In this document: positions 23,697 to 60,132 of the stretch, in pieces
Position numbering within the stretch: the first letter of the stretch is position 1
Layout of the letters: every line of letters begins with the position of its first letter
From: Bacteroidota bacterium
GTDB lineage: Bacteria > Bacteroidota > Bacteroidia > 2-12-FULL-35-15
Length of the DNA stretch: 64,000 nt
Direction of reading: 5' to 3'
Assembly (NCBI GenBank): GCA_003151815.1
Contig: PLYN01000012.1
Coordinates: 183-64,182 of the forward strand
Position numbers and translations under genes: made by a program
Notes under the pieces: model-generated
The model's database searches: none
Told to the model about the DNA's origin: nothing
What the model saw: only the letters and a program-made list of their open reading frames with translations

Positions 23697-23855
23697 AATT
23701 TGAAAATTTGAAAATGTGGTAATTTGAAAATGTAAAAGATCTACTATTTCAAATTAATAAATTTTTCAAATTGATTAATTTTCTTTTTTCTGATATTTGA
23801 TAATCTAGTAATAGGAAACCCTGAATTTTCAAATTACCAAATTTTCAAATTGATT
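23697..23855. repeat. 8/9-nt periodic inverted-arm element (AATTTGAA/TTCAAATT) in the sucA/sucB spacer
   Basis: aatttgaaaatttgaaaatgtggtaatttgaaaatgt ... aattttcaaattaccaaattttcaaattga. Confidence 0.8.
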
Positions 23856-26610
23856 AATTAGTTCCTACCAAAGCTTTAGAAAACACTTTATCTATAATAC
23901 TTTGTTGTTGTTTCGGATGTATTTTACCATAGCCTGTTGCCGGGCTGGCACTTGCATTACGACCAATATATTTTAATGTTTGTCCTTCCTTTAGTTTAAC
24001 AGAACGAAAAGCCATGAATATATGTGCCCATGCACCCATGTTTTCAGGCTCTTCCTGTACCCATAAATATTCAGTTGCATTTTTATATTTAGCAACTACC
24101 TCGTTCAATTGATTAGCCGGGAAAGGATACAACTGCTCTAAACGAACGATCGCGATGTCAATATTTCCATCCTTTTCTTTTCCTTCAATTAAATCGTAGT
24201 ACACTTTACCGGTACAAAATACGATCTTCTTAACCCCTGTTGAACCTGCCCTGAGCGAAGTCGAAGGGTCATCAATTATTTCTTTAAAGCCACCACTTAT
24301 AAAATCATTGATCGAAGATACACAAGTAGGATATCGTAATAATTTTTTAGGTGTGAAACAAATTAATGGTTTGCGGAAGTTGCGTTTAATTTGTCTTCTC
24401 AATACATGAAACTGATTTGCGGGCGTAGTGCAATTTACAATTTGCAAATTATTTTCAGCACATTGTTGCAAGAATCTTTCCATGCGTGCACTTGAATGTT
24501 CCGGACCCATTCCTTCATAACCGTGTGGTAATAGCATTACCAAACCACTCATTCTTCTCCATTTGTATTCAGCAGAAGTAATGAATTGATCGATGATTGT
24601 TTGAGCACCATTGAAGAAATCTCCAAACTGCGCTTCCCAGATCGTTAAGGCATTCGGTGCTGTTAACGAATAACCAAATTCAAAGCCCAATACACCGTAT
24701 TCGGAAAGTAAAGAGTTATATATAGTTAATGCTCCTTTTGCACCTATGTTATTTAGGGGAGTATATTCCTGTTCCGAATCCTCAATTTTTACTACTGCAT
24801 GACGATGAGAAAATGTTCCTCTCTCAACATCCTGCCCGCTAAAACGCACATTATTACCTTCATTCATCAAGGTTGCATACGCCATCAATTCGCCCATCGC
24901 CCAATCATAATTATCATTCGTGATCATCGCGGAACGATCGTCAAATAATTTTTGGGTTTTATTAAAGAACTTTTTATCCTTTGGCAATACAACTGTTTTT
25001 TTTGCAATATCCAAAAACGTTTTCTTATCAACGGAAGTATCTGTTGCTTTATCAAATGCATTAGAATCAGCCATTTCAAAACCACTCCACTGACTATTTA
25101 AAAAAGAGGGGATGGTTGTTTTTCCGGCCGCTTTAGCTTCATCTAATTTTCCCTGAAGGAGATCCTTGAAATTTTTCTCTATTTCTTTCGCAGCCTCTGC
25201 ATTTACACTTCCTTCAGAAATTAATTTATTACTGTAAATTTCTCTGGCGTTAGGATGCGCTGCAATTGCTTTATATAATAAGGGTTGCGTGAAGCGAGGT
25301 TCATCACCTTCATTGTGGCCATATTTACGATAACACAATACATCAATGAACACATCGCGATGAAATTTTTGACGGAACTCCATTGCCAGCTGAACTGTAA
25401 AAACCAAAGCTTCCACATCATCACCGTTAACGTGAAACACCGGTGCCAATACTACTTTAGCAACATCGGTACAATATGTACTTGATCGCCCATCCAGATA
25501 ATTTGTTGTAAATCCAACCTGATTATTAATTACTAAATGGATGGTTCCTCCTGTTTTATAACCATCCAACTGACTCATCTGTATCACTTCATACACAATG
25601 CCCTGACCGGCCAACGCCGCATCACCATGAATTAAGATCGGACAAACTTTATTGTTATCCCCATTATGAAAATTATCAATTTTAGCACGTGATATCCCTT
25701 CTACAACAGGATCAACAGCTTCCAAATGCGAAGGGTTTGGAGTTAAACTGATGTGAAAAGCATTACCATTTTTAGTGGTCCGATCACATGAAAAACCCAT
25801 GTGATACTTCACATCGCCATCAAACAATGAATCTTCGGAAAGATATCCTTCAAATTCTGCAAATAGGTCTTCGTATTTTTTATGTAAAATATTGGTCAAT
25901 ATATTTAAACGGCCACGATGCGCCATACCGATCACAAAATCTTTAATTCCCATATCAGCACCTCTCTCACAAATGGCTTCCAAAGCAGGAATTGCAGATT
26001 CACCACCCTCTAATGAAAAACGTTTCTGACCAACAAATTTGGTATGCAAAAAACTTTCAAATTCAACACCTCGATTTAGGCTTTTTAATATTTCGATCTT
26101 TTCATCTTTCGAAAAATTAGGAGTATTTTTACTTCGCTCCATTTTTTCCTGCATCCAATCAATGATAGCCGGTAGCCGGATATACCGATACTCAACTCCA
26201 ATAGATTGACAATAAGTTTGTTTTAAATGTGCAACGATATCTTTCAACTTTGCTGGTCCGATCCCTATTTGAACGCCGGCATGAAATACTGTTTCGAGAT
26301 CATTTTGACTTAAGCCAAAAGTCTCCACATCAAGTGGCGGAGAGTACTTCCTGCGTTCACGTACAGGATTTGTTAAAGTAAATAAATGTCCGCGAGAACG
26401 ATAACCATTAATAAGGTTGATCACATCAAACTCTTTTTTTACGCTGTGTGGGATCTCACCAACATCTTCATAATTTTTACGCGCAAATTCAAACCCCTCA
26501 AAAAATTTCTGCCAACCGTAATCTACAGAAGTGTTATCCTTCAAATATTGCTGGAACAAAACCTCTACCGAAGATATGTCCGCGTTGCCCAAATAGGAAA
26601 ATTTATCCAT
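23854..26610 (-). CDS. sucA: 2-oxoglutarate dehydrogenase E1
   Basis: GQKRFSLEG, GMAHRGRLN, HGDAALAGQG, WEAQFGDF and GPEHSSAR. Confidence 0.98.
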   Translation of the reverse strand: MDKFSYLGNADISSVEVLFQQYLKDNTSVDYGWQKFFEGFEFARKNYEDVGEIPHSVKKEFDVINLINGYRSRGHLFTLTNPVRERRKYSPPLDVETFGLSQNDLETVFHAGVQIGIGPAKLKDIVAHLKQTYCQSIGVEYRYIRLPAIIDWMQEKMERSKNTPNFSKDEKIEILKSLNRGVEFESFLHTKFVGQKRFSLEGGESAIPALEAICERGADMGIKDFVIGMAHRGRLNILTNILHKKYEDLFAEFEGYLSEDSLFDGDVKYHMGFSCDRTTKNGNAFHISLTPNPSHLEAVDPVVEGISRAKIDNFHNGDNNKVCPILIHGDAALAGQGIVYEVIQMSQLDGYKTGGTIHLVINNQVGFTTNYLDGRSSTYCTDVAKVVLAPVFHVNGDDVEALVFTVQLAMEFRQKFHRDVFIDVLCYRKYGHNEGDEPRFTQPLLYKAIAAHPNAREIYSNKLISEGSVNAEAAKEIEKNFKDLLQGKLDEAKAAGKTTIPSFLNSQWSGFEMADSNAFDKATDTSVDKKTFLDIAKKTVVLPKDKKFFNKTQKLFDDRSAMITNDNYDWAMGELMAYATLMNEGNNVRFSGQDVERGTFSHRHAVVKIEDSEQEYTPLNNIGAKGALTIYNSLLSEYGVLGFEFGYSLTAPNALTIWEAQFGDFFNGAQTIIDQFITSAEYKWRRMSGLVMLLPHGYEGMGPEHSSARMERFLQQCAENNLQIVNCTTPANQFHVLRRQIKRNFRKPLICFTPKKLLRYPTCVSSINDFISGGFKEIIDDPSTSLRAGSTGVKKIVFCTGKVYYDLIEGKEKDGNIDIAIVRLEQLYPFPANQLNEVVAKYKNATEYLWVQEEPENMGAWAHIFMAFRSVKLKEGQTLKYIGRNASASPATGYGKIHPKQQQSIIDKVFSKALVGTN

Positions 26611-52305: not shown

Positions 52306-52359
52306 TTATTTTATTGAATTACCCCTTCGACTCCGCTCAGGGTGACAAATTATTATTTA

Positions 52360-60062: not shown

Positions 60063-60132
60063 TGTGGCAACTAATTACGAATTTTAAACGAATTACGCCC
60101 CTCGACTCCGCTCGGGGTGACATTGATATTAT

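Follow-up and report, generated by a model that had tools for sequence, protein, structure and literature searches.

Two kinds of described repeat are closest to the element considered here, the small dispersed repeats (SDRs) of cyanobacteria and the Rickettsia palindromic elements (RPEs). SDR1 to SDR8 of Nostoc punctiforme and its relatives are reportedly 21–27 nt long, and are said to form hairpins with compensatory changes and to be embedded in arrays of tandem heptamers. To our knowledge, no transposase is known for them. RPEs are several times longer than 24 nt. They are palindromic repeats that lie in frame in functional, often essential, protein genes (Ogata et al. 2000, via PMC3733652). 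[quoted passage not shown] The subject of the present analysis is a 24-nt segment, CCTTCGACTTCGCTCAGGGCAGGT, in the sucA gene (2-oxoglutarate dehydrogenase E1 component, E1o) of a 64,000-nt stretch of contig PLYN01000012.1, hereafter called the window, from a Bacteroidota bacterium. The source assembly is a metagenome-assembled genome (77% complete, 2.5 Mb, 34.6% G+C). This segment is very probably mobile-repeat DNA: one member of a dispersed family of ultra-small hairpin repeats, inserted into and translated with its host gene.

The window SucA protein aligned over its full length with E. coli SucA (2JGD) and other solved E1o chains (phmmer against the PDB, E ~1e-250), and it contains the Pfam domains PF16078, PF00676, PF02779 and PF16870. 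On the coding strand the unit is preceded by GAC and followed by TCA, and is in frame with the open reading frame (ORF). An equally good boundary lies one base to the coding-strand 5' side (24245-24268, C-CCTTCGACTTCGCTCAGG-G-CAGG), under which base 1 of the unit pairs with base 20. A peptide read through the insert would span IIDDPSTSLRAGSTGVK, and the G+C content of the unit is 62.5%, compared with 34.6% genome-wide. As the 24 nt hold no stop codon in this frame, the unit is translated as a Ser/Thr-rich extension. An earlier note on this DNA had described a 24-nt REP-like unit in frame in sucA, and both its coordinates and its reading as PSTSLRAG proved correct. The loop in question is probably exposed at the protein surface, judging from its variability and from its position between PF02779 and PF16870, and the insert in SucA is most likely a neutral passenger.

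The sucA genes of 29 relatives were fetched and the loop region was aligned. The usual state is IDD followed by seven residues (e.g. SSANVKS) and VKK; this empty site was present in 24 of the 29 relatives, and 106 of the 120 best database homologues had a seven-residue loop (IDD-xxAxxKx-VKK). The empty state that the earlier note expected was therefore seen, and homologues do not in general share the loop length of the window protein. Besides the window protein, the carriers among the 120 homologues were P0003, P0034 (G021 type) and P0021. In the carriers L003 and P0003, IDD is followed by PSTSLRTG and an intact seven-residue loop, i.e. a clean 24-nt insertion. The full loops that follow the insert in other carriers are SPANEKL (L003), STAKAKT (P0003) and STANVKS (P0021), whereas the window genome has only STG. 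The insert had been thought to add an eight-residue loop; eight residues do come from the element, but the loop has 11 residues compared with the typical seven, a net gain of four, and four codons of the old loop are missing. No target duplication was detectable at the sucA insertion.

A maximum likelihood tree of SucA was calculated with the loop masked, and should be read as a quick-search tree of one protein. The carriers occupy six rows of this tree, representing five lineages (L010 and P0034 are near-identical). They were found at five separate places, so that five changes are needed, and four of the carrier lineages had an insert-free sister at 92–100% support (L001/P0057, L003/L009, L010/L007 and P0021/L018). 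The fifth, P0003, branches alone at the base of the clade, outside the clade holding the genus and a second family. A single clade of L001, L003 and L010, the carriers then known, was rejected by the approximately unbiased (AU) test (p = 8e-20).

The 90- and 300-nt flanks of the sucA site follow the gene tree, not carrier status. The L001 and L003 copies are identical at 23 of 24 nt, while their flanks are only 62–78% identical, and the loop codons just 3' of the insert are lineage-specific among the carriers. The codon directly after the insert is TCN (Ser) in all five carrier lineages, compared with Thr, Ala, Glu and Ala in the sisters, and the host site becomes GATGA^TTCN when the boundary is moved by one base leftwards. 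Since the separate carrier lineages have empty sisters, and the flanks track the gene tree, it is concluded from these alignments and the tree that at least five SucA lineages gained the insert independently of one another, all at one codon boundary. The insertion was shown to date from after the divergence of species in this genus. Table 1 lists the carriers together with the other features discussed here.

Table 1. Features of the sucA locus, sucA sequences of the carriers, and further copies of the unit in the window and its genome.
Feature	Position	Strand or orientation	Description
sucA, 2-oxoglutarate dehydrogenase E1 component	23854-26610	minus	intact 918-aa ORF; hosts the insert
24-nt repeat unit CCTTCGACTTCGCTCAGGGCAGGT	24244-24267	minus	translated PSTSLRAG, SucA residues 782-789
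Remnant of original 7-codon linker loop	24235-24243	minus	TCA ACA GGG = S T G; four codons lost compared with full-loop carriers
sucA, window genome (L001)			after GAT GAY: CCT TCG ACT TCG CTC AGG GCA GGT; then STG (3; four codons lost)
sucA, G020 (L003)			CCT TCG ACT TCG CTC AGG ACA GGT; then SPANEKL (7; clean +24 nt)
sucA, G021 (L010)			CCC TCT ACT TCG CAA AAG GCC GAT, decayed; then SKAKA (5)
sucA, P0003 (L033)			CCC TCT ACT TCG CTC AGG ACA GGT; then STAKAKT (7; clean +24 nt)
sucA, P0021 (L032)			48-nt relative of the unit with the same ends (PSMEFTQSAAEELRTG); then STANVKS (7)
Intergenic copy, TGAC-tail subfamily, CCCC-TTCGACTCCGCTCA-GGG-TGAC	52322-52346	plus	between two minus-strand genes
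Intergenic copy, TGAC-tail subfamily, CCCC-TCGACTCCGCTC-GGGG-TGAC	60098-60121	plus	closing T-A pair changed to C-G
purT		sense, in frame	GAT / GGT TCG ACT TCG CTC ACC ACA AGT / ATT; exact 24-nt, 8-aa insert
lpd (E3 component)		sense, in frame	unit present, two host codons absent; 6 aa longer than in 28 relatives
MurNAc/GlcNAc-kinase-like gene		sense, in frame	7-residue gap at the unit in comparison with PDB 1ZBS
Amidohydrolase gene		sense, in frame	consistent with insertion; poor alignment

In P0021 sucA (on a contig of NCBI GCA_036170475.1), the 48-nt insert occupies the same site as the 24-nt unit, and its middle corresponds to the reverse complement of a longer repeat family of the window genome (...TCGATGGAGTTTATCCAGAGCGAAGCCGAAGGGCTCGAAATGAC...). 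A nested insertion of one 24-nt unit into another was considered for this variant and dropped, as the junctions do not fit and the longer repeat family matches it over its full length. At the same sucA site, G006 (L024) has eight different extra residues, PAVELTIN (CCG GCT GTG GAA CTT ACC ATT AAC); this segment has no clear similarity to the unit, and could be either a very decayed copy or an unrelated insert. A search of the Joint Genome Institute (JGI) metagenomes for sucA carriers with the exact junction pattern found none, and a looser junction pattern gave 118 stretches, with no sucA among those read.

The first 19 nt of the sucA unit are identical at 18 of 19 positions to the copy at 52324-52342, and the copy at 60099-60117 has two further changes. 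Three matches to the 19-mer CCTTCGACTYCGCTCAGGG were found in the window (24249 minus, 52324 plus and 60099 plus, the last with two mismatches), compared with no match in 100 dinucleotide-preserving shuffles. In the 2.5-Mb genome, 11 copies were found at up to two mismatches and 21 at up to four, and the reversed-pattern control gave none. A chance match was ruled out, since all shuffle and reversed-pattern controls were zero, and the resemblance to an intergenic unit near 52322 on which the earlier note had relied is far beyond chance. Searches with the loop motif detected 13 strict copies in the window genome, seven of which were intergenic and five inside real genes. The view of the unit as a member of a repeat family was thus borne out: it is dispersed, mostly intergenic, and also read in frame in other genes of the window genome.

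The intergenic copy at 60098-60121 has homologous flanks (...cgaattacgcc...) in the congeneric genome G005 (L245, G005:C25, near position 74630). The closing pair at this site is C-G in the window genome and T-A in G005, which is a compensatory change at a conserved location.

The structure of the unit was deduced from an alignment of 72 distinct units from the window genome and its relatives. Three positions on either side of TTCGRCTNCGCTCA covary (CCC/GGG, CAC/GTG, GTC/GAC, TCC/GGA, GGT/ACC and others). Paired cells amounted to 92.4%, compared with 71% in shuffles and 8–52% in slid controls, and there were 55 double-change cells where 12.8 were expected; neither this value nor the pairing value was reached in any of 500 shuffles. 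Together with an invariant T-A pair, the three covarying pairs make up a 4-bp stem that encloses an invariant loop of 12 nt, TCGACTNCGCTC. Across the family the stem is variable (3–5 bp), pairing being kept by compensatory changes. Of 125 copies drawn from many phyla, 124 had a pyrimidine directly before the core, and in 100 this base paired with position 19.

Two subfamilies differ in their tails. The CAGG tail marks one of them, the cross-phylum 24-nt unit, and the TGAC tail a second one that is common in this class, mostly intergenic, and often arranged in inverted doublets with a spacing of about 37 nt. Of 54 copies sampled in G005, about 47 lay outside long ORFs, with many plus/minus pairs at this distance. 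The left unit of the G005 doublets (L233-L252) has the stem CAC/GTG and the right unit GTC/GAC, i.e. they are consistent heterodimers, similar to the doublets of REPINs (REP doublets forming hairpins). No match was found at Rfam gathering thresholds in the whole window, and a permissive Rfam scan of ten copy-bearing loci gave only tRNA matches, which belong to neighbouring genes. A mimic of the tRNA T-arm, prompted by TTCGACTCC, was also considered and dropped, as the flanking bases form no T-stem.

All five genic copies in the window genome are in sense orientation and in the frame x-S-T-S/P-L-x. The earlier note suggested looking for further peptides of this kind, and they were found in the purT, lpd, kinase-like and amidohydrolase genes. 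The purT insert is exact both in comparison with 20 relatives, in which VIKTExD is directly followed by IQKAW, and in comparison with E. coli PurT (1KJ8). In G023, purT has a decayed copy at the same site, the stem of which has changed from GGT/ACC to GAT/ATC with pairing kept. Peptides of the type ...DDPSTSLR... were also seen on metagenome contigs, in ORFs resembling UvrC, AlaRS, an aminoacyl-tRNA synthetase, a P-type ATPase and alpha/beta hydrolases. The genic copies may share one frame and the sense orientation because selection has filtered them, a Ser/Thr-rich loop being tolerable, or the pattern may point to the way in which insertion works.

Other repeats were noticed in some of these genes. 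The kinase-like ORF (contig C34:2291-3625, outside the window) has two more in-frame Pro/Gly-rich repeats, LTPNPSPTGEG and LTPSPSPIGEG, one of which corresponds to a nine-residue gap in comparison with PDB 1ZBS, and it continues without a stop into a C-terminal DUF559 (Vsr-like nuclease) domain. Many DUF559 matches in relatives likewise lie inside open frames of 1000–1900 aa. In G023 (L038, G023:C92:3158-3580), a composite repeat that combines the core with a Pro-rich palindrome arm and a second arm is in frame in a UvrA-like ORF (...GSLSPPSTSLRTGFTSPNEEGSES...). The purT gene of G014 (L075/L076, G014:C8:142111-143273) is interrupted by four in-frame stop codons, which suggests a pseudogene or a fault in the assembly.

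The number of loop-motif copies per genome ranged from 0 to 142 among 41 relatives, with controls near 0. For the exact 23-mer CCTTCGACTTCGCTCAGGRCAGG, about 0.03 chance occurrences are expected in a genome collection of 596 Gb, and at least 120 stretches were found. Among the matches listed, this 23-mer spans more than 15 phyla; the taxa include Acidobacteriota, several proteobacterial classes, Chloroflexota, Patescibacteria, Verrucomicrobiota, Planctomycetota and Cyanobacteria, and further Nitrospirota, Gemmatimonadota, Eremiobacterota, Binatia, Omnitrophota and others. The exact 23-mer was also present in 13 viral or proviral contigs (IMG/VR, L253-L265).

A Leptolyngbyaceae genome has a TTTTGGA heptamer array that is broken up by two 24-nt units in the same phase, and one of these units is identical to the sucA insert. 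Two cyanobacterial genomes had 14 and 21 copies, with compensatory variants, and tandem arrays with a 24-nt period were also found. Elsewhere the core often lies between copy-specific inverted repeats or within other repeat families. Tandem 93-nt units come after a tRNA-Leu gene at two loci (L043, G004:C5:6451-6966, and L051, G022:C74). Each is composed of a terminator hairpin, about 20 nt, the 23-nt core in reverse orientation, and, joined at the T-loop, an 18-nt copy of the 3' end of the tRNA.

The element seems to choose its insertion sites. The three best-defined targets in this genus read TGA^T (sucA GATGA^TTCA, purT GGTGA^TATT and lpd GTTGA^TACA), and the cyanobacterial array site reads GGA^T (TTGGA^TTTT). 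The candidate target sequence set beside the heptamer-array targets is GATGATTCA. A target motif shared across phyla was looked for and not found, except for a pyrimidine at base -1 and CTC or CTT after the unit.

The sucA copy was inserted into the linker loop between the pyrimidine-binding and C-terminal domains, after which the window lineage deleted 12 nt of the old loop. In the mechanism proposed here, the unit would be a non-autonomous mobile DNA, which an enzyme acting in trans would copy or move in the form of a structured single strand. It would prefer particular sites, TGA^T in this genus and elsewhere frequently heptamer arrays or the middle of a local inverted repeat. Selection would then leave copies only in tolerant surface loops, read in a hydrophilic frame. 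The specific route, by a single strand and a trans-acting enzyme, is offered tentatively. It is also conceivable, although somewhat doubtful, that the unit is the substrate of a widespread insertion machinery which recognises the hairpin and the invariant loop, places the unit at preferred contexts, and has kept it letter-for-letter across most bacterial phyla. If true, such a machinery would explain both the recurrence in five lineages at sucA GATGA^TTC and the same-site purT insertion in two species, and the unit would be among the smallest mobile DNAs.

Two kinds of enzyme were considered as mobilisers and rejected. Copy number among the 41 relatives did not track Y1 transposases (Spearman rho 0.17), and it tracked DUF559 nucleases weakly (rho 0.31, p = 0.047, relatedness not corrected for). 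In the genome with 142 copies, DUF559 was absent and the Y1 match only sub-threshold. In the window genome, no unit was found near the Y1 genes (none within 1.5 kb of the two) or near the stand-alone DUF559 gene on contig C15.

Several findings weigh against the interpretation of the sucA segment as mobile-repeat DNA. No mobilising enzyme was found, the Y1 and DUF559 co-occurrence tests being negative or weak. Five insertions at one codon boundary would be unusual for random transposition, and no common 5' flank was seen among the 125 copies from many phyla. Exposure of the loop at the protein surface is judged from its variability, and an AlphaFold model of SucA made to show the exposure was too poor for use (mean pLDDT 61, pTM 0.45; predicted local distance difference test and predicted template modelling scores). 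Conservation of some intergenic copies at homologous sites, where they show compensatory changes, hints that these copies at least may serve the host. Finally, the DNA folding energy of a single unit is no better than that of shuffles (z ~0), so that it is not thermodynamically stable. Covariation without such stability suggests that the unit is recognised in some bound or transient state, not as a free-standing structure.

The recurrence in sucA could be explained in other ways. The ancestor of the genus may have acquired the insert once, long ago, and many precise deletions may later have brought back the seven-residue loop. This would agree with the position of all inserts at exactly one codon boundary, and partial loop deletions beside the insert did occur in L001 and L010. 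However, at least five changes are needed on the tree, four carrier lineages have a strongly supported empty sister, and a single carrier clade is rejected (p = 8e-20). The position of P0003 outside the clade of the genus and the second family would require ten or more exact 24-nt losses, and the L001, L003 and P0003 copies are only 1–3 changes from the family consensus while the adjoining loop codons have freely diverged. This history is considered highly improbable. A second possibility is that the insert passed from species to species through recombination of sucA alleles in very short patches, or through gene conversion by copies elsewhere in the genome. This would fit the Ser codon that follows the insert in every carrier lineage and in none of the sisters, and a tract under about 30 nt is compatible with the data. 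It is nevertheless unlikely: the flanks follow the gene tree (L010, for example, is 82–89% identical to its empty sister L007), and the downstream loop codons are lineage-specific (STANVKS of P0021 resembles the ASANVKS of its sister), so that a crossover would have to fall in one or two codons without homology. P0021, moreover, has a different, 48-nt family member at the same site.

The nature of the element itself is open to two further explanations. A REP/REPIN-type element, mobilised by a REP-associated tyrosine transposase (RAYT, an IS200/IS605-like Y1 transposase), would likewise be mostly extragenic, hairpin-forming and without target duplication; units of the TGAC-tail subfamily, like REPINs, are often arranged as inverted doublets some 37 nt apart, and Y1_Tnp genes are present in the window genome and most relatives. 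Against this, Y1_Tnp gave no match in the genomes with 112, 20 and 11 copies and only a sub-threshold one in the 142-copy genome, while ten Y1_Tnp genomes have no copy at all (rho 0.17 for PF01797), and the two Y1 genes of the window genome have no unit within 1.5 kb. The unit also has no GTAG or CGTC head, its stem is 4 bp and its loop 12 nt, and its identity across phyla is unlike the lineage-specific pairing of REPs with RAYTs, all of which makes this origin improbable. There is very little likelihood that selection kept the segment for a function, as a useful peptide loop of E1o or as an RNA or DNA signal in the gene, and so led to its convergent fixation. The recurrence of one site in five lineages, the stem pairing kept even in coding sequence (purT GGT/ACC here and GAT/ATC in G023) and the conservation of some intergenic copies at homologous sites would speak for such a function. 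Yet the segment is absent from most close relatives and from all more distant homologues, including the solved E1o structures, the L010 copy has decayed towards A+T (8 of 24 positions changed), the same 24-nt unit occurs in unrelated enzymes and intergenic DNA, and the adjacent loop codons were deleted, as if offsetting the added length.

The unit can be compared with several described systems. Like bacterial MITEs, such as those of the Nezha and ERIC (enterobacterial repetitive intergenic consensus) classes, it is non-autonomous and readable through coding sequence (PMC10969869, PMC3733652), but it shows none of the length, terminal inverted repeats or target duplications of MITEs. With REPs and REPINs it shares a short hairpin, a mostly extragenic location, frequent inverted doublets and occasional occurrence in genes, and CGTC REPs likewise have no dedicated transposase (PMC3116915, PMC3733652). 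It differs from them in having no GTAG or CGTC head, a stem of 4–5 bp with a 12-nt invariant loop, a CAGG or TGAC tail, and no association with Y1/RAYT genes. The earlier label "REP-like" needs a caveat: the unit is not a classical REP, which would have the tag, a longer stem and a RAYT link.

The likeness to RPEs lies in translation of the unit as extra loop residues, in sucA, purT, lpd and the kinase-like gene. RPEs are not known outside Rickettsia, whereas the 24-nt unit has another sequence and occurs in Bacteroidota and more than 15 other phyla. The analogy with RPEs drawn in the earlier note thus holds for in-frame insertion in protein genes, and the resemblance is one of behaviour only.

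The SDRs, as they have been described, agree with the unit in size class (24 nt), in the hairpin with compensatory changes, in dispersal, in the presence of units in a heptamer array, in filled/empty differences between related genomes (sucA and purT), and in the occurrence of copies inside other repeats and genes; no transposase is known for either. A literature search found no paper printing the sequence of the unit, the SDR1-8 consensus sequences of Elhai et al. (2008) having been outside this comparison. SDRs are reported only from heterocyst-forming cyanobacteria, whereas the 24-nt unit is letter-identical in more than 15 phyla, and it lies in frame in housekeeping enzymes with recurrent insertion at one codon. 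This cross-phylum identity and the five-fold insertion at one codon are the surprising parts.

Such units create lineage-specific insertions and deletions in marker genes, G+C-rich islands in A+T-rich genomes, and spurious peptide motifs (PSTSLR, LRLRSGQ and FDFAQ), and annotation and alignment pipelines should recognise them. The spread of copy number from 0 to 142 among close relatives, or the hairpin used as bait, offers a handle on the enzyme that moves them. The filled and empty sites in core metabolic genes are clean, and no link was seen between the unit and the transposases usually invoked for such repeats. Rickettsia has known cases of repeats translated inside essential genes, and Nostoc has known cases of very small mobile repeats; the sucA case joins and extends both.

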